Positions 1-62,495 of a DNA stretch of 64,000 bases are shown in pieces. The stretch lies in the IMG/VR virus record IMGVR_UViG_3300045988_179151. One strand, written 5' to 3'. The stretch comes from a virus. The number at the start of each line of letters is the position of its first letter. Position 1 is the stretch's first letter. Made by a program: the position numbers and the translations under genes. The notes under the pieces were generated by a model. That model saw nothing but the letters and a program-made list of their open reading frames with translations. It was not told the DNA's origin and searched no databases.

Positions 1-70
1 ACGAGCCTAAGAAGGACGAGCCTAAGAAGGACGAGCCTAAGAAGGACGAGCCTAAGAAGGACGAGCCTAA
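1..70 (+). repeat. 15-bp tandem repeat (acgagcctaagaagg x4 plus a partial copy) encoding a (D)EPKK peptide repeat
   Basis: Direct reading: four perfect 15-nt copies at 1-60, with a degenerate fifth; frame 3 translates to EPKKD repeats. Confidence 0.85.
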
Positions 71-208
71 AACTCCAAACATCAAAGAACCAGGCCGTCA
101 AACACAACAACTTCCAAAAACAGGTACCACTACAAGCATCTTAAGCTTGATCGGTGTAGTCTTATTCGGATTGATCGGCTTTGTGTCGCTCAAAAAGAAA
201 AATAACTA
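3..208 (+). CDS. C-terminal end (5'-truncated by the window edge) of an LPXTG cell-wall-anchored surface protein
   Basis: Frame 3 reads ...EPKKDEPKTPNIKEPGRQTQQLPKTGTTTSILSLIGVVLFGLIGFVSLKKKNN*. LPKTG sortase motif, then a hydrophobic span, then a basic tail. Confidence 0.75.
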
Positions 209-14781: not shown

Positions 14782-15723
14782 ATGGAAATCCCTGATTTTA
14801 ATCGGGGGAAATCGTTCCTTTCTTTAAAATTTGTCAATGATTTGACTTTTTTGTGGAAACCGATTGAATTTAAACGTCCTCAAGTAGACTTAGTTCGTAA
14901 TCGCGATTATAGCTTCAAAAATGATATGTTGTCTATGAATACGATTAACGGACGTATTTTCGTTAAAGTTTATGGTCTTCCTGAAAATCATTATTTCGAT
15001 GGTTCGTGGAAACTTGGAATTGGAAAAGTAGTTCGAAGTGGAAAACATTGGTTTTTCCATATTTCCGTAACTAAAGAAGTTCCTGATTTCGAAATGAAAG
15101 ATTTGAAACACGTTGTTGGAATTGATCGTGGATTACGTCAAATCTTAACAACTTATGACGAAAAAGGTCAAACTCGTTTTGTGAATGGTGCGTTTATTTC
15201 GAAAAAACGCAAACATTATGCTAAATTGAGAGCACGTCTTCAAGCTAAAGGAACGAAATCAGCGAAACGTCGTTTACGTTCTTTAAGTGGACGAGAATCC
15301 CGTTGGATGAGTGATGTAAATCATCAGTTATCTAAGACACTCGTTCAAACTTATGGTAAACAAACGTTATTCGTTCTTGAAGATTTAACAGGCGTGACTT
15401 TTGAGACGGTTCATTCTCGTAAAAAAGAGAATCGTTATGAGCATCATTCTTGGTCATTTTATGATTTAGAACAAAAACTTCGGTATAAGGCTCACTTAAA
15501 TGAAAGTGAAGTTGTCTTAGTAGATGCTCATTATACGAGTCAACGTTGTCCTAAATGTGGAACGATTGATAAATCGAATCGTGATAAAGACATTCACCAA
15601 TATACATGTTCTAATTGTGGTTATTCGAGTAATGATGATCGAGTAGGTGCAATGAACATTTATGAACTTGGAAAATGGTTTGTCTCAGGCGTTGAAGAAC
15701 CAGCCTTTTCGATAAATGAATAA
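14782..15723 (+). CDS. tnpB: TnpB (IS605 OrfB family), compact or N-terminally truncated (313 aa), with intact RuvC and zinc finger
   Basis: VVGIDRGLRQ is RuvC-I; FVLEDL is RuvC-II; DAHYTSQRCPKCG...CSNCG...NDDRVGAMNI is the Zn finger plus RuvC-III. An in-frame stop lies 2 codons upstream of the ATG, so no longer N-terminus exists. Confidence 0.7.
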   Translation: MEIPDFNRGKSFLSLKFVNDLTFLWKPIEFKRPQVDLVRNRDYSFKNDMLSMNTINGRIFVKVYGLPENHYFDGSWKLGIGKVVRSGKHWFFHISVTKEVPDFEMKDLKHVVGIDRGLRQILTTYDEKGQTRFVNGAFISKKRKHYAKLRARLQAKGTKSAKRRLRSLSGRESRWMSDVNHQLSKTLVQTYGKQTLFVLEDLTGVTFETVHSRKKENRYEHHSWSFYDLEQKLRYKAHLNESEVVLVDAHYTSQRCPKCGTIDKSNRDKDIHQYTCSNCGYSSNDDRVGAMNIYELGKWFVSGVEEPAFSINE

Positions 15724-29432: not shown

Positions 29433-30107
29433 ATGTCAAAACCCCAACTCATTCATCTATCAGAATCCTACATTAGCGATTATTTAAGACTTTACCACAG
29501 CGAATCGCTTGTAAATGGAAACATTAAAAAATATAATTTTGTCTCTAAACATGCAGGAATGTCTCAAGAACCAAACTTGTTAAGTGTACCATATCGCGCA
29601 GATGCTGTTTGTATTTTCGTTTACAACAAAAATAAAACAAAAATGTTACTTATCAAAGAATTCCGATATCCAGTCAACGATTTCATTATCGGAACCCCCG
29701 CAGGCTTTATCGATCCAAATGAAACTATCGAACAAGCAGCTCTACGTGAACTCTTCGAAGAAGTCGGCTATACAAAAGACCAAGTCACAATTGATTGTAT
29801 TCTCGAAGCATCTTATTCAGCCGTTGGTTTAAGTGACCAACAAGTTGCATCTGTTTTTATCACTGTTGACGATTCTGTCAAACCAAAACAACATCTCGAA
29901 GGCACTGAAACCATTCAATATTTTTGGATTACTCCGCACGATGCAGAATATTTCCTAAAATATAAACAATTCAACAAAGATATCATGCAACAATTAGACT
30001 TACCTGAAAAACCAATTGGAATTGCCGCTCGTACTCAACTAATGCTCAAACAATTCACAGACACCCTACCTAGCGAATCGTTTCGTGCACTTATTGACCA
30101 ACTATAA
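29433..30107 (+). CDS. Nudix hydrolase
   Basis: Perfect Nudix box GFIDPNETIEQAALRELFEEVGY (G-x5-E-x7-REUxEExGU). Confidence 0.7.
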   Translation: MSKPQLIHLSESYISDYLRLYHSESLVNGNIKKYNFVSKHAGMSQEPNLLSVPYRADAVCIFVYNKNKTKMLLIKEFRYPVNDFIIGTPAGFIDPNETIEQAALRELFEEVGYTKDQVTIDCILEASYSAVGLSDQQVASVFITVDDSVKPKQHLEGTETIQYFWITPHDAEYFLKYKQFNKDIMQQLDLPEKPIGIAARTQLMLKQFTDTLPSESFRALIDQL

Positions 30108-39728: not shown

Positions 39729-40346
39729 ATGCGAAAATATATGAAATTAAGTCAATATGCAAAAAATTTAGGAATTCACTATAAAACAGCGTGGCGACAC
39801 TGGCATGATAACAAGCTCAATGGATATCAAGATCCCGTAACAGGCACTATTTATGTGTTAGATCAAGATACGAATGTGCCAATAGGTTCTCAAATAAGAG
39901 CGATTTTATATGCACGTGTTTCAAGTACAACTAACAAAGCTTCTTTAGACGGTCAATTGGATAGAATGCGTCAATTTGCCGCTGCAAAAGGATACACTGT
40001 TGTCGATGAACGAAAAGAAATTGCATCTGGTTTAAATGAAAACAGAAAACAATTATTACCGCTTCTTTCTCGACAAGATTATGATGTTTTAATTGTAGAA
40101 CATAAAGACAGATTGAGTCGATTTGGTTCCACATATATTGAACAAGCTTTGATTAATAATGGTGTAAAATTAGAAATTATTAATAAAATTGAAAATAAAG
40201 ATAATGAACTTATTGACGATTTTATTTCTATTATTACAAGCTTTTGTGGTCGCATTTATGGACGCAATCGCAAGACTAAAACACAAGAAATCATAAACCA
40301 ACTAGAATTGACACCTGAAAGGACAAAAGATGAAACTAGCGTATAA
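39729..40346 (+). CDS. tnpA: IS607-family TnpA: MerR-like HTH plus serine recombinase/resolvase catalytic domain
   Basis: MKLSQYAKNLGIHYKTAWRHW is the HTH. AILYARVSSTTNKASLDGQLDRMRQFA is the Ser-recombinase active-site region. Confidence 0.7.
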   Translation: MRKYMKLSQYAKNLGIHYKTAWRHWHDNKLNGYQDPVTGTIYVLDQDTNVPIGSQIRAILYARVSSTTNKASLDGQLDRMRQFAAAKGYTVVDERKEIASGLNENRKQLLPLLSRQDYDVLIVEHKDRLSRFGSTYIEQALINNGVKLEIINKIENKDNELIDDFISIITSFCGRIYGRNRKTKTQEIINQLELTPERTKDETSV

Positions 40347-41931
40347 AATCGCATTTCCTGATGAGTTAATAGACACATATGATTTCTTACAAAAAGAATT
40401 CAATCGCGTCTTATCTGATGAATATATGCGTGAATCTATTTTATCAATTGACAATGAGCTTCATCCTGGCAAATATTGGCCACTATTGCGTGATCTCATA
40501 GGTCAAGATACTCAATATAAATGGAAAACAGATAAACGCTTTCCGTCACCATCTTGGTATTTTTGTGCGTTTGCTGAACAAATTCGTCAAATTCACAAAT
40601 CTCAAAAAGAACAACTAGCTCTTTATGACGCCTTACAACGCTTTGATAATAACGATAACGTCGAATTTTATCAATATTGTATGAATAATAGTATTCCATT
40701 TAATAAAGCAAAAGTTAAAAATCTAAAGCGGTGCGATGAACGCCCAGAATTACCGTATTCAGCTACCTTTGTCCTTGATTTTGCCTTTATCAACAGTCAA
40801 GCCGCTAAAATGGTAGATAATACATTCCACTATGCGATTTTCAACGAAAACAATAAACTCATATGGAATCAGTTACCAATTATCTTTCATCAATCAAGTA
40901 AATATCAACCAGGAATGCGTGTAAGTAAACCTAGATTTTCAAAAGATGAAGACGGTAATTATTACGGAGTAGTCTCTTTTGATTTTGAAGAAAGTGTCAC
41001 ATTTGGTGAAAATATTGCTGCTATTGATTTAGGTAAAATTAATTTATATACATTCGCATACATTCGTCCAGATGGTACTTATAGTGACAATTATTTCATT
41101 CATTCAAAAATGATTGAACGGTTAAAACAAAAACTTGAAACATTATATAATGAAAAAGCAATTTTAATCGAAAAAAATAAGCATGTTGACGAACTTTTCA
41201 AGTATTCTGACTATATTCCTGATGCAAGCCTTAAAAAATGGATACTGCGTCAAGGCAAAATAGAACGTTTATCAACAAAAATAACAGCAATTAAAGATGC
41301 TATCAGTGCTGAAATGAGTGCCGAAATAGTTGAATTGTGTCAAAAACACAATTGTTCTACTCTTTTTATGGAAAATCTTAGTTGGTTAGAATCCGTAGGA
41401 GGTAAGTGGAATCATAGTGTTCAACAAGATACCATTGCCTTAAAATGTGCACAAAACGGTATTGCTGTATATAAAGTAAACGCAAAAAATACCAGCAAAG
41501 CACATCCTATTACAGGCGAATTAGGCAAAGAATTAGGCCGAAATATCATTTGGTCAAATGGCGACATACTTGATAGAGATTTTGTTTCTTGTTTAAACCA
41601 AATTCAACGAAAAGGAAAACGTCGTACATCTCATCGACGAATTGAGACAAAACAAGGAATTCAATTAAAATCTCTCCGAGATAAACATCAGCCAACACCA
41701 AAACGCACTAAGCGACAAACTAGTCGACGTTATGAAAATCTAAAAAAACTAGAAAACTTAAAAAATAAAAACACTTCAAGAACTACACAAATGGTGGTAG
41801 TTCTTCCACGAATTAGCAACGATTATCCAGCAACGTGGTCTTGTGTTGATAAAAAGTCAATACAAGAGGGTAACAATTGCATGAGACGTACAGATGTCTA
41901 TAAAAAGTCATACATGTACATCTGCAATTGA
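40330..41931 (+). CDS. tnpB: IS607-family TnpB-like RuvC nuclease (533 aa), no zinc finger
   Basis: IAAIDLGKINLYTF is RuvC-I; TLFMENLSW is RuvC-II; GDILDRDFVSCLNQIQRKG is RuvC-III-like. Its 3' end is homologous to the noncoding region at 255-345. Confidence 0.6.
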   Translation: MKLAYKIAFPDELIDTYDFLQKEFNRVLSDEYMRESILSIDNELHPGKYWPLLRDLIGQDTQYKWKTDKRFPSPSWYFCAFAEQIRQIHKSQKEQLALYDALQRFDNNDNVEFYQYCMNNSIPFNKAKVKNLKRCDERPELPYSATFVLDFAFINSQAAKMVDNTFHYAIFNENNKLIWNQLPIIFHQSSKYQPGMRVSKPRFSKDEDGNYYGVVSFDFEESVTFGENIAAIDLGKINLYTFAYIRPDGTYSDNYFIHSKMIERLKQKLETLYNEKAILIEKNKHVDELFKYSDYIPDASLKKWILRQGKIERLSTKITAIKDAISAEMSAEIVELCQKHNCSTLFMENLSWLESVGGKWNHSVQQDTIALKCAQNGIAVYKVNAKNTSKAHPITGELGKELGRNIIWSNGDILDRDFVSCLNQIQRKGKRRTSHRRIETKQGIQLKSLRDKHQPTPKRTKRQTSRRYENLKKLENLKNKNTSRTTQMVVVLPRISNDYPATWSCVDKKSIQEGNNCMRRTDVYKKSYMYICN

Positions 41932-43433: not shown

Positions 43434-44294
43434 ATGTTTTACGAACAACAATTTGTCCATAACCCAGACTCTCCTCGAAAACAATCACCAATCCCATGGG
43501 CTTTTAACAAAACACTGCGCACCGGTCACAAACATATCAACACACTTAAAAGCCAAATTCATATCGATCATCGAGATATTGAAGAAGAGATCGCGCAAGG
43601 ATTTGTTTATCTTCAAACGTCAGACAATAAATACATTGACTTCCTCTACAAAATTCCAGCGGGAACCTACACGATTTACGGATTTCGTCGAGGTTCTATT
43701 GACGTTCCACTACCTGAATTATACGTTGCAGGACGTTTGAAATTTAACAACAATTCCCTTGTATACCATAACATTCGTCTAGGCTCACAATATCTACCAC
43801 TACTACCTCTTTCAAATATTTATAACTACGATGATTCTGAATCTTTTGAAATTGATACCTCAAATGGTCAGCCAATCTATTATATGAAAATGTGTACAGG
43901 ATCTGCACTTCGAGATCTTATCGGCGAAGTCAACAATCTTATGGAAGCTGCTAACAAACTTCAAACTATCCTTATTCCGTTCTTCCTTCGATATGGAAAC
44001 AACGATTTACGATTATGTCCTTTAGAAGCAGACTCTTTAAATTCAATCACTGCTCGATCCATTTCATATTTCCTTCAAGACAAACTCACTATTGCATCCG
44101 ATCATTATACACGCTATTGGATTCTACTAAATTATCTACATCAAAAATATGACGCCAATACTATCTACCGAAAACTTGGCTCTATGAATCAGCGACATGA
44201 GGTTTTTGACGAATTTGGTATTACAGCATCTGAATTACAAGAACGTTATCGAGAATATCAATCATCTGCAAATAAAAATCGAATTATTAATTAG
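43434..44294 (+). CDS. Family C protein (286 aa)
   Basis: MFYEQQFVHNPDSPRKQSPIPWAFNKTLR... paralog of 38115. RBS agaaaggattcattc. Confidence 0.5.
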   Translation: MFYEQQFVHNPDSPRKQSPIPWAFNKTLRTGHKHINTLKSQIHIDHRDIEEEIAQGFVYLQTSDNKYIDFLYKIPAGTYTIYGFRRGSIDVPLPELYVAGRLKFNNNSLVYHNIRLGSQYLPLLPLSNIYNYDDSESFEIDTSNGQPIYYMKMCTGSALRDLIGEVNNLMEAANKLQTILIPFFLRYGNNDLRLCPLEADSLNSITARSISYFLQDKLTIASDHYTRYWILLNYLHQKYDANTIYRKLGSMNQRHEVFDEFGITASELQERYREYQSSANKNRIIN

Positions 44295-44422
44295 AAGCAC
44301 TGGATATTTATCTAGTGCTTTTTTACAAGTAACAGGCAAACGCAGTTATAAAGTAACGCGACGAAGTCTTCTTGCCTATTTATTTTCAAATATAGTAAAT
44401 TTCGGATAATATTTATGTTTTC

Positions 44423-44925
44423 TGACACCACTTTCAGAAAAACGGTGTCAAAAGTGGTGTCAGAGAAAAAGCTTTTAAATCAACGTTTTCGGCACATTCT
44501 TTATTTCTTGACACCACTTTTTTTAAAAGTGGTGTCAGGTATAAATGTAATAATATCAATAGTTTAGACGATTCTGACACCACTTTTTCAATATTTTGTA
44601 AAAAACTTTTTATTTTAAAATGCGAAAAAAAAATATAACTTGTGTTATAAAAAAATATAGCGTTTATATTTTGAACTGAAATCGCAAAAAATGCCAAAAA
44701 GTGGTGTCAGAAACCCCTTTTTCGAGCGCAAACCCGCATCGTTGAGCGATTTTCTCTGACACCACTTTTGACACCACTTTTTTTTCGACAGACACCAAAA
44801 ACGGTGTCGACCTAGTCCGAAACACAAGTAAACGCTTAGAGCCTCAACGCGTTTCACGATTTTCACGCGCATTTTTCTCTGACACCACTTTTGTCATTTC
44901 TGACACCACTTTTTTTCAGACTCAA
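44423..44925. repeat. Iteron cluster: about 12 copies of TGACACCACTTT(T) in both orientations, several as closely spaced inverted pairs
   Basis: Seen at 44423, 44449(rc), 44506, 44529(rc), 44574, 44699(rc), 44757, 44770, 44800(variant acggtgtc), 44880, 44903 and others. Confidence 0.8.
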
Positions 44926-44929
44926 AATT

Positions 44930-45160
44930 TGCACTTTTTCGCCCTTTTCATCGAAAACCCAAGAACTACAATCGATTGCGATAATTTTTTTTGACTTTAG
45001 CTTGAAATTATTATATAATAATTATATAAGATTTAGAAGAAAATCTCCAAAAATAGCCCTATATAAATGTGGTTTTTCATCTAATATTTATGCTTTTTAT
45101 ATAACGCGCATAAATAAATTTATACTATATTTAAAAATGTACAAAAAAAAAGAAAGAAGG
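44930..45160. promoter_or_regulatory. AT-rich region with AT palindrome (aattattatataataatt); putative DNA-unwinding element and promoter next to the iterons
   Basis: Very AT-rich. Lies between the iteron cluster and the RHH/primase genes. Confidence 0.4.
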
Positions 45161-45165
45161 ACTCT

Positions 45166-45345
45166 ATGCCACATCCATTACGAAATATCCACGGTGAACA
45201 CACATTCACACGTCTTCGCTTAGAAACCGCTATGAAGCGTGAACTAGACTCATTGGCGAAACAAGATAATCGTTCGACAACGTACATCATCAACGAAGCC
45301 ATTGCAGAATATTTAGAACGTCATTCTAATTATCAACGTAAATAA
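45166..45345 (+). CDS. Ribbon-helix-helix (CopG/Arc/MetJ-like) DNA-binding protein (59 aa)
   Basis: MPHPLRNIHGEHTFTRLRLETAMKRELDSLAKQDNRSTTYIINEAIAEYLERHSNYQRK has a beta-strand followed by two helices, typical of RHH. RBS agaaagaagg. Not in the ORF track because it is under 60 aa. Confidence 0.55.
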   Translation: MPHPLRNIHGEHTFTRLRLETAMKRELDSLAKQDNRSTTYIINEAIAEYLERHSNYQRK

Positions 45346-45356
45346 GGCGGTATCTC

Positions 45357-47066
45357 ATGGTAACAATTAAACCAAATAAAGCTTTTTTAGAGCGCATGGC
45401 GAGATTGTACGATCGTGAACTCGACCCGACTATTTTTGACTTTTTCGATTATATGCTCAACAACGAGATGAACTCTATCGACATCAATACACAAGAAGCC
45501 TTTCTCGAACATATCGTCGCACTTAAAAGTAATCTCACACGAATTCATATCACGAATGCCAACGTGCGAGCCGGGCGTATGACGACAACTTTAGACGCAT
45601 CTAAATTCAAAATGCAACAAAACGAGATCGCACTCATCGTACATACCTACCTGCCAATTGTTCGCTTAAAACTAACCAATGACGCAAAAACGAGTGATCT
45701 AGCCGTGTTCAACTATTTCGGCAATAACGCCGGTACTTATCAACTTGATACATCCCTTATCGATGACTTGATCTACATTTTGCAACCAAACGTGTCCGTC
45801 TCGGCACTGAAATCCTATCGCAACGCCATCGCGTCACTTGCCAAACACAAGACCGAAGACAAAAACAAAAACTTGATCGTCGTCGGAAACGGCATCTACA
45901 ACAAACTCACCCGCGAGCTCGTGCCCTTTGATCCGTCGTATATCACAACTACAAAAATTGCCACGAACTACAACCCCGACGCTCAACTGGTGACGATTCA
46001 TAATGACGATGACAACACCGATTGGGACGTTGAGTCCTGGTTAAAAGACTTGGCAGGAGCACTTAGTAATAATTTCGACAATGACACATATCAATTGTTC
46101 TGGCAAATCATCGCGGGCGTAACTAATCCGGATCAGGTCAACGCTAAAGCCGTGTTCTTTTACTCATCTGTTGGGAATAACGGTAAGGGAACCTATGGCC
46201 AACTTCTTAAAAATCTGGTCGGTCAAGATAATTACTCATCGCTACCCATACCCGCCTTTAAACATGAATACTTAAAAGAAAAACTGCTAGGAAAAACGTT
46301 AAATATTGCTGATGAGAATCCTGTCGATGTCTATGTCGATGACGTGCAAGATTTCAAGGCAATGATTACGGGCGATGATATTATGATTAACCGTAAACAT
46401 GAAAAACCAATCGTTGCTCGTATTAAAGCCATCAACATTCAAATGTTAAATGGACTACCTAAGACTCGTGACAAGTCTGATTCGTTTTATCGTCGATTAA
46501 TTATCGTTCCTTTTCTTTATTCTTTCACGAATAACGGAGAAAGACCCTATATCAAGCATGACTATATGTATCGTCCTGAAGTTCTTGAATATGTCTTGAA
46601 AAAAGCGTTAGAAATGCCGTCTTTCTCAGAATTTGTTACGCCTGCGCGTTCCGCACAAGCTTTACTGCAATATAAAGAAGATAACAATACGGCACTTGAA
46701 TTCTGGAACGAGTTTGAATGGCAATTCCAGTGGGACTTTATCCCACCCGCGTTCTTATACGACTTATATGTAGCATGGTTTCAAGAAGAACACGGTGGTG
46801 AACACGGTTCTTGTTTCTCTAAGAAGACATTTTTAGCGCACATTCAAAATCATCTACAAAATGACCCTATTTGGGAATTTAAAGCCACCCGAGCCACTTG
46901 CCCGAACCCCTTGCAAGTTTCCGGACGAATGGATGCGGACGAGCCACTCATCACGCAATACAATTTGACGCGCTTTATGGATAGCTCTTATAAAGGCTCA
47001 AACCCGTTACTGACGCGAGCATTCACCCGTATGGACAGAGGTCGTGGCATTATACGAAAAGCATAA
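45357..47066 (+). CDS. Phage/plasmid primase-helicase, D5/P4-type C-terminal NTPase domain (569 aa)
   Basis: VFFYSSVGNNGKGTYGQLL is Walker A; LNIADENP is Walker B-like. The architecture matches P4-alpha/D5-type replicative primase-helicases. Confidence 0.55.
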   Translation: MVTIKPNKAFLERMARLYDRELDPTIFDFFDYMLNNEMNSIDINTQEAFLEHIVALKSNLTRIHITNANVRAGRMTTTLDASKFKMQQNEIALIVHTYLPIVRLKLTNDAKTSDLAVFNYFGNNAGTYQLDTSLIDDLIYILQPNVSVSALKSYRNAIASLAKHKTEDKNKNLIVVGNGIYNKLTRELVPFDPSYITTTKIATNYNPDAQLVTIHNDDDNTDWDVESWLKDLAGALSNNFDNDTYQLFWQIIAGVTNPDQVNAKAVFFYSSVGNNGKGTYGQLLKNLVGQDNYSSLPIPAFKHEYLKEKLLGKTLNIADENPVDVYVDDVQDFKAMITGDDIMINRKHEKPIVARIKAINIQMLNGLPKTRDKSDSFYRRLIIVPFLYSFTNNGERPYIKHDYMYRPEVLEYVLKKALEMPSFSEFVTPARSAQALLQYKEDNNTALEFWNEFEWQFQWDFIPPAFLYDLYVAWFQEEHGGEHGSCFSKKTFLAHIQNHLQNDPIWEFKATRATCPNPLQVSGRMDADEPLITQYNLTRFMDSSYKGSNPLLTRAFTRMDRGRGIIRKA

Positions 47067-47067
47067 A

Positions 47068-47092
47068 AGGCACGAAATCGTGCCGTTTTTCT
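47068..47092 (+). terminator. Rho-independent terminator
   Basis: ggcacga-aat-cgtgcc followed by ttttt. Confidence 0.65.
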
Positions 47093-47153: not shown

Positions 47154-47570
47154 ATGGAAAACAACTTCGAAGATTTTATAAAATATCGCGCAGAATTGCG
47201 TTATAAACACTTCAACAACAATAAATATAAATCTTTAACTGAATTTTGTAACGAGACAGTGACTTGGAATCTATGGGACACTAATTTCTTTAGACTTCTT
47301 TTCAAAATACCCTGCACCACTCCCGATATGCAATCATCAAAATTTGAAGCATTTCTAGAAAATGAACTCGCCCACCCAACTGTTGATTGGATTAACATAT
47401 TCGATTACATCGCCGCCCTTGAAAAACATCCATATTTTAACGAATATCTTGATTCATACATAAACGATTCCGGCTCATTTATACGAGACCCACTTTTCTG
47501 GTCGATTTTGAATAAATATAAAGATGCACTGATCGGACAAATCTCAAATAATCAACAACTGTGGTTCTAG
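47154..47570 (+). CDS. Small protein, family B (138 aa, C-terminal ...NNQQLWF)
   Basis: RBS agaaaggacatcaa. Shares the EL RYK(H/Y)F...DWI..(Y/F)DY... blocks with 47586, 48683, 49491 and 49920. Confidence 0.5.
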   Translation: MENNFEDFIKYRAELRYKHFNNNKYKSLTEFCNETVTWNLWDTNFFRLLFKIPCTTPDMQSSKFEAFLENELAHPTVDWINIFDYIAALEKHPYFNEYLDSYINDSGSFIRDPLFWSILNKYKDALIGQISNNQQLWF

Positions 47571-47585
47571 AAAGGGCTTTATATA

Positions 47586-48035
47586 ATGACAACATTATCT
47601 TCTACGGACTATTTCGCTATTCGAAAAGAACTTCGTGAAAAATATTTCATGAACAACGACTTCACACAATTAACCGACATCCCCACATTTCAACGATGTC
47701 TAACGGCCCATGCCGATGCACATATAGGCGAACTGTCAGAACCTTATTTTATTATCAACTATATAGTTACGCCTGAACAAAAAGAAGCGCTAGATGTAAA
47801 AATACCATATACTAATCTCAAAAAACTAAGATTAATATTATCAAACCCAAATCAATACTTGAACCCAAAAATCAATATTCAAACCGTGTACGATTATCTT
47901 CAAGAATTAAATCAATATGATACCATCGATTGGCTTAGCAATCGAGCCGTCAATATTCTGACAGTATTTGATGAACATGGACGTGATTTATCAATATCAA
48001 CCAAACCTAACAACAATCAACTACTATGGCTCTAG
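47586..48035 (+). CDS. Small protein, family B (149 aa, C-terminal ...NNNQLLWL)
   Basis: Paralog. The stop TAG is followed directly by AAAGGA, the RBS of the next gene. Confidence 0.5.
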   Translation: MTTLSSTDYFAIRKELREKYFMNNDFTQLTDIPTFQRCLTAHADAHIGELSEPYFIINYIVTPEQKEALDVKIPYTNLKKLRLILSNPNQYLNPKINIQTVYDYLQELNQYDTIDWLSNRAVNILTVFDEHGRDLSISTKPNNNQLLWL

Positions 48036-48179
48036 AAAGGATATTATATGCCTAATAAAAAAATTATCAAATCAAACAAAGCCATTGTCGCATCCTATCG
48101 CGATGCATTCATATCTAAACAATGCACACGGTCACAAAACAATGATACTTAATCATGACATAAAAAGGAACCTGGAACT

Positions 48180-48671
48180 ATGTCTACAAATAAACAATTA
48201 CAACTCGCTTTAGAAATTGCAACAATGGCTCACAAAAATGTACAACGTCGAAACGGCGATCCTTATATCTTTCATGCCTTGCGCGTAGCTAACAACTCAA
48301 CATATATTCGCACAAAAACACAAAAAGCCGCAGGTATTTTGCACGACGTCATTGAAGATACGCCATTTAACGAAGAATTTTTGCGCCAACAAGGAATCGA
48401 TGAAACTATACTTAAAGTTTTACGCTTTTTAACGCACGATAAAGAATCAACTACCTACGAAGACTATATCGCTCACATCTGTCAAAACATTGATGCTATG
48501 CTTGTCAAACTTGCAGATTTAGCCGATAATTTAGATCAAGGGACCCTTCCTGTTTTAACTGAACGCGACATCGAACGATTCAGCATATATAAAAATGCAC
48601 AACAAACGATTATGCAAACACTCGCTCAAAAACACCCCACCATCTTCCAAGAAATTCTGCAAAAAATGTAA
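48180..48671 (+). CDS. HD-domain small alarmone hydrolase (RelA/SpoT-type (p)ppGpp hydrolase domain only, 163 aa)
   Basis: GDPYIFHALRVA...ILHDVIEDT...MLVKLADLADNL matches the RSH hydrolase-domain motifs (HD, ED, LVKLADRLHNM). Confidence 0.6.
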   Translation: MSTNKQLQLALEIATMAHKNVQRRNGDPYIFHALRVANNSTYIRTKTQKAAGILHDVIEDTPFNEEFLRQQGIDETILKVLRFLTHDKESTTYEDYIAHICQNIDAMLVKLADLADNLDQGTLPVLTERDIERFSIYKNAQQTIMQTLAQKHPTIFQEILQKM

Positions 48672-48682
48672 AGGACCATAAC

Positions 48683-49099
48683 ATGTCAATATTCGAAGAA
48701 CAAATTAGATTATCCGAACAGTTACGTTATCAATACTTTGACAGAGATGGTTTCACAAAAATATCTGATAATACTCGACCCGTCGAGTATATCGAAAGAT
48801 ATGACTCGATTGGATATTTAACCGAACTTACATTCTTCCATGCATATCTTGATTATAACTATAAAACAGATATGAGCCCCAATCATAAATCAACAGCGAG
48901 CGATATAATAAATCTAATCAAAACAAAAAAAGCAAATTCCCATATTGATTGGATAGCCCTCTATGATTACCTGGATAAATTAAAACAAACTCGATGGCGT
49001 AGAGTCATTGACAATGATATCAATGCCGCCCTTGAAGTGTTTGAACCGTTTCGGGGTGAATTAGCCAGCGTTAAAAATAACCAGTCACTTTGGATTTAA
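48683..49099 (+). CDS. Small protein, family B (138 aa, C-terminal ...NNQSLWI)
   Basis: Paralog (IDWIALYDYLDKLKQTRW...FEPFRGELA). Confidence 0.5.
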   Translation: MSIFEEQIRLSEQLRYQYFDRDGFTKISDNTRPVEYIERYDSIGYLTELTFFHAYLDYNYKTDMSPNHKSTASDIINLIKTKKANSHIDWIALYDYLDKLKQTRWRRVIDNDINAALEVFEPFRGELASVKNNQSLWI

Positions 49100-49126
49100 C
49101 AATAACTATAAAAAAGGATAATCAAC

Positions 49127-49474
49127 ATGAACACACAAACAAAACTACAACAATACCTCACAGGTCACGATACAAGTGTTCTTGAAGAACGACTTGAACT
49201 CACACCTGATCTCGGATTTAATTACAAAATCCATTCCGAAGAATCCCTCTATTTCTTAAAAACACCAAGTCTTCAATCCGTTAAACTAATCACAGAAACA
49301 AAAACTGAAAAGGTCACAAAATATTATATCAATATTTTCCAAAAGAATGGCGGTTATATTGCATTTATTGGCGAAACAGACGACCCAACCTCATCCAAAT
49401 TACAAACGACCGTTTACGAAGCCGATTCCTATAATACACTCATCAAAGAAATCTACTACTTAATTTACAAATAA
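49127..49474 (+). CDS. Hypothetical protein (115 aa)
   Basis: RBS aaaaaggataatcaac. No family motif. Confidence 0.4.
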   Translation: MNTQTKLQQYLTGHDTSVLEERLELTPDLGFNYKIHSEESLYFLKTPSLQSVKLITETKTEKVTKYYINIFQKNGGYIAFIGETDDPTSSKLQTTVYEADSYNTLIKEIYYLIYK

Positions 49475-49490
49475 AGAAAGGCGTTAAAAT

Positions 49491-49907
49491 ATGTTAACCT
49501 CCAATGATTATATTGAATTGTCTGACGAATTGCGCTATAAATATCTTGATGTAACTGGATTCGCAACCATATCCGATAATACTAAATTCACTGATTACAA
49601 TGAAGACGGTAACATAATTGGAAATATTACAGAGCGTGCATTCTTGTATTGTTATCTCAATTATGACTATGAAATCGATAAAGACGCCGATTATGACCCA
49701 ACCACAGACGAAGTTATAAGATTAATCAAAACTAGAAAAACAGATCCTTATATCAATTGGACAGCGCTCTATGACTACTTCGATGAGTTAAAACAAACGC
49801 AATGGAGCAAGGCCATTAGTGAGGATATCGACAACGCTCTTGAAGTATTTGAACCATTTCGAGGTGAATTAGCCGGCATTAAAAACAACCAACAACTATG
49901 GATTTAG
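49491..49907 (+). CDS. Small protein, family B (138 aa, C-terminal ...NNQQLWI)
   Basis: Closest paralog of 48683 (INWTALYDYFDELKQTQW...FEPFRGELAGIKNNQQLWI). Confidence 0.5.
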   Translation: MLTSNDYIELSDELRYKYLDVTGFATISDNTKFTDYNEDGNIIGNITERAFLYCYLNYDYEIDKDADYDPTTDEVIRLIKTRKTDPYINWTALYDYFDELKQTQWSKAISEDIDNALEVFEPFRGELAGIKNNQQLWI

Positions 49908-49919
49908 AAAAGGAAGCCT

Positions 49920-50318
49920 ATGTTCAATATTGAAACTACCTACGACCCCATACAAATTACCGAAAAATATAGAAAAATAAGAATCAAATATTTTTCAAAC
50001 CCTAACTATAAAACACTTGCCGATACTGGCTGGCACTTGGACAATCTCGAAAGTCTTTACGAATTCAATTTTTTAAGCGTTCTCATTTTCGGTGGATGGA
50101 ATACCGGTTTTGCGAGAACAACAGAAGAAGTCTGTCATGCTATCAAAAATCATAAAAACTATAAAAACATCAATTGGCGAGCCTACATCGAATATATCGA
50201 CGAAGTTCAAAAAACATTGCCCGTTCGTGAACCGTACGAACTTGAAATCTACAAAGCGGTTAATAGTATCCGTTCTGACTTCGGAATTATCTCAAACAGT
50301 CAACAACTTTGGATTTAG
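49920..50318 (+). CDS. Small protein, family B (132 aa, C-terminal ...NSQQLWI)
   Basis: Paralog (INWRAYIEYIDEVQKT...). Confidence 0.5.
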   Translation: MFNIETTYDPIQITEKYRKIRIKYFSNPNYKTLADTGWHLDNLESLYEFNFLSVLIFGGWNTGFARTTEEVCHAIKNHKNYKNINWRAYIEYIDEVQKTLPVREPYELEIYKAVNSIRSDFGIISNSQQLWI

Positions 50319-53498: not shown

Positions 53499-54212
53499 AT
53501 GATTATGAAAAAATCATTAAAACTCTTCGCCACATCCAAGTGGTTTGACCTTTTAGGCGTCGCCCTTGTTGTCGGCATCGCCATCGCATCAGGCTATCTC
53601 AACTCACGCTTAGACCAATTTGTTAATTGGGGCCCTTGGACAGCCTTAGTGCCGTTCGGACTTATCTCCGTCACAAACGTCGGAATTTCCATGTTATCGA
53701 CACGATTTACAGGAAAACTCAGCAAATGGGGAAATTACCTCGGAATTCTAAACACCGTTCTTTCGGGGACCATCGACTACATCCTTGGTAACAAAGCCGC
53801 AATCATCACCTATCCCGTAACTTTCTTGATTTATACGGTTGCTATTCAAAAATGGCAAAAATCGCAAGAAGGTAAACCAAACCAACTTAATAAAACACAA
53901 ACAAAGCTCGTCGCAGTTTTCGCCACAATTTTAGCCTTTGCCTTTGCGTATGGCACTAACTATATCGGTTACGGTGGCAAAATGAACATTCTTGCTTACG
54001 TCACTACGATTGCCTTCGCCCTATCTCTTGTAGCAAATGTCTTTAACGCTTTAAAACTTACAACACAATGGAGCTTCTGGTTGGTCTACAACTTTGTTCA
54101 ACTTGCTAAAGCCAGCGTTCAAGGAAACTTCGCCAATGTCGGTAAATACATCTTCTATATCTTAAATGCGTTCGGTGCGTTATTCGTATGGAATGACAAA
54201 GAAAGGAATTAA
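53499..54212 (+). CDS. pnuC: PnuC-like nicotinamide riboside/NMN transporter (237 aa)
   Basis: About 7 TM segments and Trp-rich motifs (WFDLLG, NWGPW, WQKSQEG, W..YNF). The size and pattern match PnuC. RBS aaaaaggagaaatg. Confidence 0.45.
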   Translation: MIMKKSLKLFATSKWFDLLGVALVVGIAIASGYLNSRLDQFVNWGPWTALVPFGLISVTNVGISMLSTRFTGKLSKWGNYLGILNTVLSGTIDYILGNKAAIITYPVTFLIYTVAIQKWQKSQEGKPNQLNKTQTKLVAVFATILAFAFAYGTNYIGYGGKMNILAYVTTIAFALSLVANVFNALKLTTQWSFWLVYNFVQLAKASVQGNFANVGKYIFYILNAFGALFVWNDKERN

Positions 54213-55783: not shown

Positions 55784-57313
55784 ATGATTACACCAATTTA
55801 TCTATCTACTGACTTTTACAAGCTTTCTCACCGCGAGCAATACCCAAAAGGCACAACTACTGTTTATTCAACATTAACGCCACGGTCTAATAAATACGCC
55901 CCCTGGTCAGATGAAATTGTATTCTTCGGTTTGCAATACTTCATCAAGGAATACTTGATTGAACGCTTCAATAAAGAATTCTTTGAAGTTCCAATTGAAG
56001 AAGTTGTAACGCTCTATACAAGCTTTATTCAAAATACACTCGGAAAAGAAACCGTAGACGTTGACCATCTCGTAAAACTTCACGAATTGGGTTATTTGCC
56101 ACTTAAAATCAAAGCTCTTCCTGAAGGAACACTCGCTCCGATGCGATGTCCTGTCATGACGATTGAAAACACGCATCCTGACTTCTTCTGGTTGACCAAC
56201 TTCATCGAAACTATTCTTTCGACAACTATCTGGCGACCAATTACATCAGCAACACTAGCGTATCAATACCGTAAAGTGCTTGATGACTATGCATTGAAGA
56301 CAACCGGCTCAACCGCGGGGGTTGAATTCCAAGGTCACGACTTCTCTCTTCGAGGAATGTCATCTGAACAATCCGGTATAACGTCAGGTATGGGGCACTT
56401 AACCTCATTCCAAGGAACGGATACAATTCCAGCCATCTTCGGTGCGCATAAATACTATAATGCCCCTCTTGATTTCACAACCGGTGCATCGATCTCTGCC
56501 ACAGAACATAGCGTTATGTGCGCTTACGGTAAAACCGATGAACTAGAACTCTTTAAACATCTTCTCGTAGACGTTTATCCAACAGGATTATTCTCAGTCG
56601 TATCCGACACATGGGATTTCTGGAAAGTTGTTACAGAATACTTGCCAGCTCTTAAAGATATTATCATGGCGCGTGACGGCAAACTGGTTATTCGTCCTGA
56701 CAGTGGTGATCCCGTGGCTATTGTTACAGGAACCGCTATCAACGGAACTACACCTGAAGAAAAAGGTCTTATCGAATGTCTTTGGGATATCTTTGGCGGA
56801 ACCGTTAATGAACAAGGCTATAAAGTTCTCGATCCGCATATCGGAGCTATCTATGGCGACTCTATCAACCTAGACCGCGCCAAAGCTATTTCAGAACGTC
56901 TTGAACAAAAAGGCTTCGCTACAACAAACATTGTTTTCGGAATTGGTTCTTTCTCTTACCAATACCATACCCGAGACACCTTCGGATTTGCCGTCAAAGC
57001 GACTGCCGCAACTGTTAATGAGGAAGAACGCATGCTCTTTAAAGATCCAAAAACTGACGATGGTACGAAACGCTCACAACGCGGACGCGTTGTTGTCGCA
57101 CAAAAATCAGATGTGTTACATGAAAACCCAGACTTTGATTTTACAACATTAACGGGTGATCAATCACAAAATGACTTGCTATGGAAAGATGGGCTTTACG
57201 AAGCTGAAGAACATTATTCAGAGTGGAATGCGTTACGACCTGTCTTTTTAGATGGACGAATTCTCGTCGACGAGTCACTTGAAACAATTCGTAAACGTAT
57301 TAAATCCGCTTAA
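55784..57313 (+). CDS. Nicotinamide phosphoribosyltransferase (NAMPT/NadV) homolog; candidate nicotinamide ADPR transferase (Namat) partner of the Prs-like gene
   Basis: N-terminal LSTDFYKLSHREQYP matches the NadV/NAMPT signature (TDSYK.SH..QYP). 509 aa is a typical NAMPT size. RBS aaaaggaacaaac. Confidence 0.6.
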   Translation: MITPIYLSTDFYKLSHREQYPKGTTTVYSTLTPRSNKYAPWSDEIVFFGLQYFIKEYLIERFNKEFFEVPIEEVVTLYTSFIQNTLGKETVDVDHLVKLHELGYLPLKIKALPEGTLAPMRCPVMTIENTHPDFFWLTNFIETILSTTIWRPITSATLAYQYRKVLDDYALKTTGSTAGVEFQGHDFSLRGMSSEQSGITSGMGHLTSFQGTDTIPAIFGAHKYYNAPLDFTTGASISATEHSVMCAYGKTDELELFKHLLVDVYPTGLFSVVSDTWDFWKVVTEYLPALKDIIMARDGKLVIRPDSGDPVAIVTGTAINGTTPEEKGLIECLWDIFGGTVNEQGYKVLDPHIGAIYGDSINLDRAKAISERLEQKGFATTNIVFGIGSFSYQYHTRDTFGFAVKATAATVNEEERMLFKDPKTDDGTKRSQRGRVVVAQKSDVLHENPDFDFTTLTGDQSQNDLLWKDGLYEAEEHYSEWNALRPVFLDGRILVDESLETIRKRIKSA

Positions 57314-58156: not shown

Positions 58157-59777
58157 CTATAAACTACTCTTTGCAAGAGACTCTTGGTATGTCAATAGTC
58201 CATTATCATGACAATAACGACGATGACATTCTTCAGAAGCCTCCTGAACCTGACATCTAACAGTACAACTCGTACTGCTTTTTGTATATACTGGAAACTC
58301 CAACATCAGAGAACGTCTCTGATTAATAACTCTTCCAGCATTCACATCAGCATTACAAGAGAAATAACACTGCTGACAAACAAAATCTTTTTGAGATTTA
58401 CGATTATGTTTAGACACATAATGACAACGTGAACATTCTTGACTAGTATAAGCAGGATTAACCGCAACAATTTGAATCCCATATTGCTCTTCTAAACGAG
58501 CTAATTTAGCGTTAACAACAGAACGATAGGTACGACCAATTAAACGATTCATTTGTTTAGACAGTCCTGCTGCTCTAAAATCAAGTTTTTCAACCACAAA
58601 AACGCCAACATTCTTTTTCGCTAATTTGTTTAAAATGCGACAAATCTCATTTTTAAAATACGATTTGATACGTTGTTGCAATTGATTATAACGTTCATTT
58701 GTTGACAATTTAATAGACTGTTTTTGAAGCTCTTTAGTCAATTGCAAAAGCTCTTCATCCCAAATTTTTAATTTGATAAATGATGACAATCCATGGCGTT
58801 CACCGTCACTTGTTGTGAACATTGCAACCATGCCAAAATCAAGCCCAATACTTTCTGTTGAAGAACGTAACGGGGCTTTGTCATAACCAATAATAGCTGA
58901 AATTGTACATGTTTTATCAGTCAATCGAACTTGTACGAACGGTAATCGTTCACCTTTTTTAAGGCAATCATCCAAATAAGGATTACGTTTTAAAGGCAAG
59001 TAAATCGGTTTTCCTTTTTGCAAGGTTGATAATTTCAAAAAATAATCAAAATGTGAGGCGTTTTTTTGAAACTTCTAAAACCGCTACTTTTTCATCTAAT
59101 TTCAAAGTTTTGACACGTTTCAATTGTGGAAAACGAATACGTTTTCGGGCACGCTTAATCAATTTACGCATAAAAAAGAGAATATCTGATGAAACAGGTA
59201 ACGTTACATTTGCTTTATGCGCCTTAGATGGAATTAATAAGTCACCTTCTTTTGTCTGATGCCATGTTAAGTCAACAGACGAATGATGCCAAAGATGACA
59301 CTTATTAATACGATAACAAGTAGCCAAAAAAAGTTCATCAACAATAAATGAATGGCCTAAAAAAGAACGAACGACATCTTCAAGTTTTGTTAACCAGGAT
59401 AAATAAATCTCTAACGTTTGTTTATAACAGGCTTGAACATAACGCGCAGATAAAGGTGTTTGAACAGCATCTCTTTCAATTGCTTTCAATTGTTCTTCTA
59501 ATGACTGTTTAGGCGTTTGTCCTTTTTCAAGCTGATTTGCATAACGTTTTTTACATGACTCAAATAATCGAACATAATCTTCTTTTGTTTGATATGGTTT
59601 AGCGTTTGTAAAAGTTAACTGCTCATTGTCCCGAACAAATCGTAAATCAATATCTGATAAGAAATAAGCCATTAAATCAGAATAAGGAGTCAATAAATCA
59701 TTGGCAACATCAATTTTACCAGCATTAGCTAATGAAGGTGTCGGTATTGTTGCGATCCACTTTGTTGATTCGACCAT
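58157..59777 (-). pseudogene. tnpB: Large TnpB-like gene (about 540 aa) split into two ORFs by a +1 frameshift in an A7/T7 homopolymer (plus-strand T7 at 59060-59066). RuvC and zinc finger are intact
   Basis: C-part has IGLDFGMV (RuvC-I), VVEKLDF (RuvC-II), NPAYTSQECSRCHY...CQQCYFSCNADVNAGRVI (ZF plus RuvC-III). With A6 the N-part reads ...LEVSKNASHFDYFLKLSTLQKGK..., continuous into the C-part. Confidence 0.6.
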
Positions 59778-60896: not shown

Positions 60897-61361
60897 AAAA
60901 TGGAAATCATTGAGGACTAATCATCTGCAACCAAAATACAAATATTTCATGGAAATCAAAACTTCATGACGACGATGACGATGTTGCGTTACTGTTAGGC
61001 GTCTTCGACACCATGGAAGCCGCTGAAAAAATAGCAAGCGAAACTTCAACCATCAACATCGTACAACAAAACGAACCATGCGAGCTTGCACTAGGATAAA
61101 GACTTAATATAACCTATACTCTTTCAAAGATTAACATCAAAAAGAAATTAAAAATAAAAATTGTCCAACAACGGCTCCAATATGGTACAATAATATTGTG
61201 AACGTCGAGAGACATCCACAACGATAGTAAAACAGACATACCGCCAACCTGATATATCATCACAAACAAAGAAACTTGGGACTGCATGCTTGTTTTACTG
61301 TCACCAACTAAAAACACTCGCGAAGGACAACCCGTATCCCGCGATAGAAAAGGAGTTAGCT

Positions 61362-62135
61362 ATGCTAACAAATATTGAAGTCGTCAAGAAAGACGGTCGT
61401 GTAGAACCGTTTCGAATGACAAAACTATTGACAGCTTTGCAAGCTGCCGCATTAGACATCCACTACACACTCACAGATGATGAACTCAAACAAATTGAGA
61501 ACGAAGTGTATAAATACATCGACGCTCAATCCGTTCTTCTTCCGCAAGACTTGCACTTTACCGCTATTGAAGCGGCTCGCAAAGTCAATGCTGATGTAGC
61601 AAAAGCTTACGAAGACTATCATAAGCAAAAACAATCGTTGAAGGTTTCTGACCTCAATCGATTGAAAGTTGTATCGAAGACCGGAATCGTGTCCGACTTC
61701 AACGCCAAACACATCGAAAACGCCTGTCAAAAGGCCGCAAAATCAATCGGTAAAGAATTGACCGATGAGCAATTGCACGATGTTTTGTCTGAAGTAGCTC
61801 ACTGGCTCGATACATCTAAATACCATGACACTGTTGCAACGAGTGATCTCCACCGTTTCGTCATGGGAGGCTTGAAAAAGGTTGATTTGCCGACCTATAC
61901 AGCCTATAAGCGTTACTGGCAAGCTCAACGTGACCGAGCGACCGCATTTCATGAATTGCAAAATGAGGCGGAAGGCTTGCGCTTCGGTTCATACAATGAA
62001 AATGCCAACAAAGATTCGCAAGTGATTTCAACTAAATCAGCGCTCATCAACGAAATGACCATGAAGAAACTCATGCGTCACGTCTTGAATCCTGAATGGT
62101 TGACGGCTCACGAAGAAGGATACATTTATATCCAT
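61362..62135 (+). CDS. nrdD: Anaerobic ribonucleotide reductase NrdD (class III), exon 1: ATP-cone plus start of catalytic domain
   Basis: RBS gaaaaggagttagct. MLTNIEVVKKDGRVEPF is an ATP-cone. ...YNENANKDSQV...LTAHEEGYIYIH aligns with T4 NrdD ...LNENANKDSRV...KAHESGIIHVH (recalled from memory). Confidence 0.7.
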
Positions 62136-62495
62136 GAACAGATTGTGGCCTAGTTCGGTAACGAACTATGGAAAAACCGCGTTAACCCGTGCCGAAAGGC
62201 TGAAGGGGTGTCGTTCCTACGGCACAGTAATTATAGGAAATGATAATGAAAGGAACGGCTAACAGGGAACGAAAGAATCCTGTGCGACTTATGATATTTC
62301 ATAAACGTTAATCGACTATCGAAAGGATATCTATGAATAATTGGTTCATAGAGAATAACTGAGTAGAGTAGCCCCTGGTGAAATAAACAGGTTCGTCATC
62401 GTCTGAGATTAGGACGAGATAAATCGTGTAATAGCCAAAATGCGGCATCCTATGTAACGACTAGGATGATGATATAGTCAGCTCACACCCAAGTG
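62136..62495 (+). ncRNA. Putative group I intron 1 (360 nt, no ORF)
   Basis: Stop codons in the nrdD frame. Upstream exon ends in U; intron ends in G. Shares the blocks ggaaatga.aa / ggctaacagggaac / aatcctgtg with intron 4. Confidence 0.55.

Follow-up and report, generated by a model that had tools for sequence, protein, structure and literature searches.

A probable SaPI-type Rep/ori replicon module in a large plasmid-like element of the human mouth

Introduction

The Rep proteins of staphylococcal pathogenicity islands (SaPIs) are self-loading helicases that also initiate replication, and their C-terminal winged helix binds iterons of 5–6 nt (PMC9371898). In the SaPI origins, the 6–12 iterons surround an AT-rich center directly 3′ of rep, with at least two sites per side running in opposite directions, and both binding and melting are independent of ATP (PMC9371898). 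Replicons built on self-loading helicases of superfamily 3 (SF3) are already known from SaPIs, some phages, and small plasmids. Here, we analyze a 64,000-nucleotide stretch of DNA (hereafter, the window) from the IMG/VR virus record IMGVR_UViG_3300045988_179151, in which an earlier note made from the letters alone had proposed an iteron-regulated origin next to its initiator gene. The locus at 44423–47092 combines an iteron array, a promoter, a small gene for a ribbon-helix-helix (RHH) protein, and a gene for an SF3 helicase, and we consider it likely to be a theta-type replicon module that is self-contained, belongs to the SaPI Rep/ori kind, and has the RHH protein as its autoregulator. The pairing of an origin with an adjacent initiator is well supported by relatives and by comparison with the SaPI system, while three details of the earlier proposal, concerning the unwinding element, the primase, and the role of the RHH protein, are corrected below. 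The whole analysis was computational.

Two other systems provide points of comparison for the proteins. The alpha protein of satellite phage P4 binds iterons in ori and crr via its C-terminal domain. In the streptococcal plasmid pMV158, a small RHH repressor gene, copG, stands before the initiator gene repB, is cotranscribed with it, and has its operator at its own promoter. The classical iteron plasmids F, R6K, RK2, and pPS10 rely on winged-helix initiators of the Rep_3 type that recruit the host proteins DnaA and DnaB (reviewed in PMC4980987). For the likely genetic setting, the closest description is that of the Inocles, giant plasmid-like elements of oral streptococci, for which one origin and one terminus have been inferred from GC skew in an account that does not describe an initiator or iterons (PMC12340149). 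Inocles are circular human oral elements of ∼350–395 kb, rich in insertion sequences (ISs), and encode LPXTG proteins and the protein InoC (∼454 aa, PF13814) (PMC12340149).

Results

A letter search of the 64 kb found 10 exact copies of TGACACCACTTT, all of them within 44423–44912, seven on the plus strand and three on the minus strand. No exact copy was found elsewhere in the window, and in 100 dinucleotide-preserving shuffles, both the mean and the maximum number of copies were 0. The relaxed pattern GACACCNNTTT matched 12 sites in the 64 kb, every one inside 44424–44912; the two sites gained, 44439(−) and 44798(−), are both GACACCGTTTT, and all other single sites in Table 1 are exact copies. 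A thirteenth, half-site GACACC at 44791(+) is palindromic with 44803–44808. The earlier note had counted about 12 copies in both orientations over roughly 500 bp, and these results bear it out. The fuller iteron unit reads AAAAGTGGTGTCA(GA), or its complement, and a window-wide scan for clustered 9-mers did not find a second noncoding array of such kind. The source record has no called gene between 44295 and 45165, and the mechanical open reading frames (ORFs) of this interval are disrupted by single-base indels in comparison with a 93% identical relative (L002), which agrees with the earlier reading of the array as free of credible coding sequence.

Table 1. Features of the module and its upstream border (positions in the window)
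Feature	Position	Strand	Sequence, sites, or match
Terminator-like hairpin, end of upstream operon	44296–44329	+	AGCACTG...CTAGTGCT then TTTTTT
Left iteron set, six sites	44423–44586		44423+, 44439−, 44451−, 44509+, 44526−, 44575+
Central AT-rich core, 111 bp, proposed DNA unwinding element	44587–44697		81% AT, peak 88%
Right iteron set, seven sites or half-sites	44698–44912		44698−, 44757+, 44769+, palindrome 44791–44808, 44880+, 44901+
Sigma-70-type promoter of the RHH–helicase operon	44991–45019	+	TTGACT, 17 nt, TATAAT; 11/12 consensus matches
Operator-like perfect palindrome across the −10 box, proposed RHH site	45011–45029		TTATATAAT-A-ATTATATAA
59-aa RHH protein, proposed CopG-like autorepressor	45166–45345	+	Pfam RHH_1
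569-aa SF3 (D5/P4-type) helicase, proposed self-loading initiator (Rep)	45357–47066	+	
Intrinsic terminator of the two-gene operon	47069–47092	+	GGCACGAAATCGTGCC then T run

The sites form two sets around an AT-rich core. The iterons flanking it are opposed, with plus-strand borders that read ...CACTTT (left) and AAAGTG... (right), and the right set contains the palindrome GACACC-N6-GGTGTC. The positions and orientations of the left set are the same in three relatives (L002, L018, and L061). In a 74% identical relative (L013), the left-set spacing is retained despite an iteron one base shorter, and, counted from the first site of the right set, the offsets of +59, +71, and +100 match those of the window exactly. 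Inside the array, between opposed iterons, 13 of 13 representative modules of different iteron classes had an AT-rich block (85% AT or more). The unwinding element had earlier been sought in an AT-rich stretch that follows the iterons. Such a stretch does exist at 44960–45160, with 78.6% AT vs. 62.2% across the window and with a perfect palindrome, but its bulk is missing from L013; it is mostly promoter, operator palindrome, and leader rather than conserved origin core, and the part conserved among relatives is the core inside the array. The array as a whole lies 445–934 bp upstream of the helicase start, and no DnaA box with one mismatch or fewer was found within 44300–45200. On its other side, the hairpin at the end of the upstream operon retains its stem in L002 with a different loop; a terminator scan passed over this hairpin because its loop exceeds 8 nt.

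We gathered ∼70 related modules from metagenome and IMG/VR contigs and found them to retain the order of iteron array, consensus promoter, RHH gene, and helicase gene. Among relatives of 60–95% identity with the upstream flank present and intact, an RHH gene of 47–59 aa stands directly 5′ of the helicase in every case; more distant relatives have a helix-turn-helix (HTH) protein in its place and still carry arrays. At least 11 iteron classes can be told apart, and within any one array, the copies have all changed in step. The classes include AAAGTGGTGTCA (that of the window), AAAGTGGTGCCA, AAAGTGGTGCA, AAAGRGGTGCC, AAAATAGTGCCA, AAAGTGGAGAGA, AAAGTGGATAGA, AAAACGGAGACAT, AAAGAAATAGA, and three of the GGGTA/GGGTC type. 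The half AAA(A/G)TGG is common to most of them and the other half varies. Some classes have 5–8 direct copies with a period of 21 bp, followed by inverted sets. This recalls the classical iteron plasmids, in which direct initiator sites spaced by ∼21–22 bp lie beside an AT-rich region and the initiator gene; unlike in Rep_3 origins, the predicted initiator here is itself a helicase and a DnaA box is lacking. Megablast gave no match, either for the locus among phages or for 50 kb of the window among plasmids, and a scan of GTDB genomes returned nothing closer than relatives at 37–38% identity, so the module has no cultured reference.

In two of the relatives, L003 (4651–5557) and L004 (4666–5571), the entire iteron array is tandemly duplicated as a 607-bp unit with 96–98% identity, which places two complete origin-like arrays ahead of one RHH–helicase operon.

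The behavior of the repeats across lineages bears on the possibility that they are a structured noncoding RNA gene or a transposon end array. The array does contain many inverted repeat pairs that could fold into hairpins, and IS elements are frequent in the window. However, an Rfam search of 43800–45600 by E-value returned chance-level matches only, the best scoring 26.8 bits vs. a gathering score of 195, and the 21-bp-period direct copies of the sister modules cannot pair mutually. The concerted change of all copies argues for a trans-acting reader. Moreover, the array is always tied to the RHH–helicase operon, whatever its other neighbors, and has neither a second end nor a transposase partner. 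We regard an RNA gene or a transposon end as extremely improbable.

The helicase encoded downstream carries the Pfam domains D5_N, DUF5906, and Pox_D5. It scores 187.8 bits against TIGR01613 ("phage/plasmid primase, P4 family"; cut-off 108.7) over aa 173–478, and this match explains the database name "primase, P4 family." No primase domain was found in the protein, and every "primase" profile matches via the helicase part alone. Of the primase-helicase proposed earlier, the helicase and its Walker A motif GNNGKGT (G273–T279) thus stand, and the primase does not. A profile of 111 homologues was compared with the Protein Data Bank (PDB) using hmmsearch, and the sole solved structure matched was PriRep5 of SaPI5 (7OLA/7OM0, E = 1.9e-103), aligned over its residues 320–756 only. 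An AlphaFold (AF2) model of the helicase (pLDDT 90.4, pTM 0.86) was matched by Foldseek to the 7OLA chains with target-normalized TM-scores of 0.80–0.87, 30% identity, and E = 1.3e-31. The Walker A and Walker B (D319, E320) motifs, N365, and R379/R380 show little or no variation across the 111 homologues. By homology and by its predicted fold, the protein is a Rep-type self-loading helicase built of three domains, a collar at the N-terminus, the ATPase, and a winged helix at the C-terminus; in the model, the winged-helix region comprises helices at 464–479 and 489–499 and a β-hairpin at 506–520. The C-terminal tail (aa 525–569; 46929–47063) contains the motifs MDADEPLIT.Y.L and R.F.R....RG..R, conserved in 111 of 111 homologues and kept even between modules of differing iterons. 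The tail motifs may mediate contact, either to a replisome protein of the host or among subunits.

The closest characterized relatives are satellites and phages, namely SaPI5, Javan satellite phages, lactococcal P335-type phages, and bIL310. With the Rep–ori systems of SaPIs and other phage-inducible chromosomal islands (SaPI1 Rep1, SaPI5 PriRep5, and SaPIbov1 Rep), the module has in common a homologous SF3 helicase of the same three domains, short iterons in two opposed sets around an AT-rich center, and the lack of DnaA boxes. Its specificity also appears to reside in the C-terminal domain. It differs in several respects. The origin here lies upstream of the operon, and the helicase gene is followed only by a terminator before the next gene begins; a pri gene or fused primase is lacking, whereas an RHH gene is cotranscribed; and the iterons are 12–13 nt rather than 5–6 nt. 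The module is also located in a giant plasmid-like element and not in a phage-inducible island, and its relatives occur in several orthogonal copies per element. We did not meet genes typical of phage-inducible islands (integrase, Stl-type repressor, or packaging), and the flanks consist of unrelated genes of unknown function. The P4 alpha protein differs from the window helicase in having an N-terminal primase domain and from the window origin in having two separated iteron clusters instead of one array.

In ecological terms, a closer analogue is the Streptococcus thermophilus plasmid p4147A (NZ_CP065505.1; 5.9 kb), the Rep of which aligns with 75% of the query at 29% identity. For replication, the plasmid carries only a primase-like gene (pri) and the rep homologue, and 3′ of rep, it has ∼8 TTAGTACACTT sites, an A/T-rich center, and ∼7 AAGTGTACTAA sites. 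The plasmid and the window thus have the same opposed geometry with the AAGTG half in common and facing the center, and the host genus is the same as that of the likely host of the window element. Unlike in the window, the origin of p4147A is downstream of rep, a primase-like gene precedes rep, there is no RHH gene, and the module is single.

With a promoter and a terminator of their own (Table 1), the genes for the RHH protein and the helicase constitute a two-gene operon; the gap between them is eleven bases. The 59-aa product matches Pfam RHH_1 with E = 4.6e-6 and 26.8 bits, above the gathering cut-off of 20.5, as well as the Arc-like and CopG-like repressor families of PHROG, which confirms the fold family assigned to it earlier. 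Nearly every module examined has a promoter of the form TTGACA-17-TATAAT/TATCAT ∼70–180 nt ahead of the RHH start; the exceptions were L040, with a promoter nearer to the ORF start used, and L012, in which none was found. The palindrome across the −10 box of the window consists of two 8-bp palindromes, TTATATAA, with centers 11 bp apart. The sequence at the −10 box varies with the type of RHH protein: TTATATAA repeats accompany the window type, TGATATCA...GATAT accompanies type B, and L013 has a palindrome with 14-nt arms. Because the RHH type tracks the −10-box palindromes, the protein is probably a CopG-like autorepressor, with the proviso that gene and promoter are adjacent and linkage could yield part of the pattern. 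The likeness to copG–repB of pMV158 lies in the RHH gene just ahead of the initiator gene and in the operator-like palindrome at the promoter of the operon, whereas RepB of pMV158 is an HUH nuclease of rolling-circle replication and not an SF3 helicase.

The diversity of the iterons allowed us to compare candidates for the protein that reads them. The RHH proteins of L003 and L065 are 98% identical (one residue, outside the β-strand) and have the same promoter region, and their modules have different iterons; L003 and L022, conversely, have one iteron in common and differ in the RHH β-strand and in the surroundings of the −10 box. These discordant pairs make the RHH protein an improbable reader of the iterons, and of the two roles suggested for it earlier, iteron binding and autoregulation, the latter fits better. 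In the helicase, the wing of the winged helix (aa 505–522) is never common to two iteron classes, and the recognition helix (aa 486–500) is common only to classes with iterons 1–2 nt apart. Near-identical helicases with unlike iterons have substitutions mainly at aa 2–62 and 503–519, and S507E, P516M, K517S, and L519I go together with a change from GGAGAGA to GGATAGA. The N-terminal domain is disfavored as the sole determinant of specificity, as the helicases of L003 and L022 keep the same iteron despite 53 substitutions in aa 1–166. The patterns point to the C-terminal winged helix as the seat of iteron specificity, in agreement with the SaPI Reps (PMC9371898), with the first 60 residues as a further possible determinant.

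The same comparisons are informative about an explanation without any role in replication. RHH centromere-binding proteins such as ParG, ParR, and omega bind arrays made up of short repeats, direct and inverted, upstream of their own operons, and the array could in that manner be a centromere-like partition site, or else a purely transcriptional operator array for the RHH protein. The constant position of the RHH gene beside the array would agree with this. Nevertheless, the iteron class is independent of the RHH protein in the two discordant pairs, and the distant relatives with an HTH protein instead of RHH still have their arrays. The operon contains no ParA, ParM, or TubZ-type nucleoside triphosphatase, the partner being an SF3 helicase, and an AT-rich core between opposed sites is a feature of origins. 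We consider a partition site or operator array very unlikely.

Under the replicon model, the 569-aa Rep would act both as the initiator and as the replicative helicase. Its C-terminal winged helix would recognize the 12–13-nt iterons of the two sets, and Rep would assemble on both sides of the 111-bp core, melt it, and load itself there as a hexamer, needing neither DnaA nor a separate helicase loader. Priming would depend on the host or on a primase gene located elsewhere. The RHH protein, made from the same promoter as Rep, would bind the tandem palindromes at the −10 box and curb its own synthesis and that of Rep, similarly to CopG in pMV158.

The window is the first 64 kb of a 105,864-bp metagenome contig (105.9 kb) carrying the exact helicase protein. 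The relatives are from human oral metagenomes, with large related contigs of 120–390 kb, and a 92% identical helicase with the same iterons is located on a 390,697-bp long-read contig from saliva (BNJT01001543.1). We found no phage structural or packaging genes among the window proteins scanned, and PHROG scans of ten large window proteins matched nothing beyond a transposase family and one family without known function. The "viral" label of IMG/VR is doubtful because of this lack of structural and packaging genes and because PcfJ is found among the neighbors in relatives. The window has features compatible with Inocles, including several TnpB/IS genes, an LPXTG protein, the helicase relative on the 390,697-bp saliva contig, the human oral source of the relatives, and the lack of matches among plasmids, phages, and GTDB genomes. 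No PF13814 (InoC) gene was found among the window ORFs scanned. The related saliva contigs of 120–390 kb are probably Inocle-like elements.

Several of the large contigs carry more than one module. ERZ773008 NODE-8 (IMGVR_UViG_3300045988_183301; 229,674 bp; loci L102, L148, L104, L103, L097, and L106) has six co-oriented Rep paralogues at 43.7, 67.2, 86.4, 122.0, 165.1, and 226.8 kb, and at least five of the six genes have an array of their own, each of a different sequence. Five other contigs (67–391 kb) have two co-oriented modules each, 38–79 kb apart. Two modules of one iteron class were never found on the same contig, and neither tblastn nor the k-mer cluster scan detected a second module in the window. 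By helicase identity, the close modules fall into four groups that recur across contigs, the window's module belonging to one of them; we read these as four conserved positions. On the few multimodule contigs, the modules keep a similar order and spacing.

Gene content around the module was diverse. An IS607-like unit, consisting of a 205-aa serine recombinase (Resolvase domain) and a 533-aa TnpB-like protein, is located 2.5 kb upstream of the origin (39729–41931). Its genes are absent at that position in L002, and the unit is for this reason probably a recent insertion. Further TnpB-like genes are at 14782–15723 and, on the minus strand, at 58157–59038. Directly 3′ of the helicase (47154–50318), there are five paralogous ORFs of 132–149 aa with no match in Pfam, PHROG, or NCBIfam. 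All five end in NNQQLW[I/F/L] and have in common the motifs ELRYKYF and INW..YDYLDEL, and the C-terminal pattern Qxx[L/W][I/F/L] resembles a sliding-clamp-binding motif. Six more such paralogues are found in L002 (8233–11667) and three in L018 (4828–6628), and none beside the other module classes examined.

Farther from the module, an 809-aa protein (16076–18505) joins P-loop kinase (AAA_33), metallophosphoesterase, and T4 Rnl1-type RNA ligase domains in a Pnkp-like RNA repair architecture. Genes of NAD salvage encode a NUDIX hydrolase (29433–30107), a nicotinamide mononucleotide transporter (53499–54212), and an NAMPT/NAPRTase-type phosphoribosyltransferase (55784–57313), and an ATP-cone/NrdD fragment is found at 61290–62153. 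Two ORFs at 463–8863 encode proteins of 1230 and 1586 aa, the second with six G5 domains and an LPXTG anchor; this cell-wall anchor indicates a Gram-positive, coccus-type host cell, and the protein matches the surface proteins described for Inocles. The contig end (window 1–75) consists of ∼5 copies of the 15-nt tandem repeat ACGAGCCTAAGAAGG.

Discussion

Some of the observations weigh against the locus being an active origin read by the winged helix of its Rep. No primase or other replisome gene is adjacent to the module, and none was recognized among the scanned window ORFs. The GC skew does not switch sign at the locus and stays negative to either side of it (27–62 kb). The cumulative skew drops steadily to −6.8, with C exceeding G on the plus (coding) strand almost throughout the window, and gene orientation flips only at 19.4–27.4 kb and 58.2–59.8 kb. 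The skew analysis had been proposed earlier as a check of the origin; it shows no inflection at the locus and gives the origin no support. The uniform negative skew lacks the long-term signature of a dominant bidirectional origin here, which counts slightly against one. The presence of several modules per element raises the question of whether each of them fires. For the reader of the iterons, the N-terminal aa 1–60 are, like the wing, never shared between iteron classes. The hybrid helicase of L014 (866–2569), moreover, carries the iterons of the window despite a foreign C-terminal part: its aa 1–375 are 97% identical to the window-type helicase, its aa 371–567 are 70% identical to the distant paralogue type L148 found on a related large contig, and over the C-terminal 190 aa, its identity to the other close (60–95%) relatives does not exceed 48%. 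The junction falls in the most conserved ATPase stretch, and a short-read assembly chimera is as likely as a real recombinant, which would be a counterexample to specificity by the winged helix; we thus set L014 aside as proof that the C-terminal domain is irrelevant.

The multiplicity of modules and the absence of a skew switch at the locus would also fit a working origin–initiator pair that does not replicate its host element. Such a pair could be a replicon of satellite or phage type that was captured and retained to serve another end, such as interference with incoming phages or satellites using related Reps, by acting as an origin decoy or titrating the helicase, or replication only of a subregion or during transfer. 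The satellite and phage origin of the closest characterized relatives is in line with this explanation, as are the single origin and terminus inferred for Inocles (PMC12340149). However, integrase, packaging, and satellite-type genes do not flank the module, and the nearest recombinase belongs to the IS607-like insertion that the 93% identical relative lacks. The recurrence of four helicase identity groups, with similar order and spacing of the modules, suggests core architecture rather than cargo. We find a captured replicon of this kind unlikely.

It is possible, and we propose it only tentatively, that the giant oral-streptococcal elements (Inocle-like, 230–390 kb) use several origins instead of a single one, each with its own self-loading and privately specific SF3 helicase. 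The six-module contig, the five two-module contigs, and the recurrent helicase groups speak for this proposal. Such elements would be a bacterial counterpart to the multiorigin, multi-initiator chromosomes of Sulfolobus.

In comparison with the self-loading helicase replicons known before, the module is new in its upstream origin, in the RHH gene replacing the primase gene, and in its bipartite iterons of 12–13 nt. It is set in plasmid-like elements of the human mouth that are very large and uncultured, and GC skew has so far been the only basis for inferences about their replication (PMC12340149). With 11 or more iteron specificities paired with slight changes in the wing, the family provides a natural series for decoding how these initiators read DNA, and the modules are candidate minimal replicons for oral-streptococcal vectors. 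Of greatest interest is the possible use of several orthogonal origins by one giant bacterial replicon; if all the orthogonal modules do fire, this would be an unusual case of multiorigin replication in a bacterial replicon.

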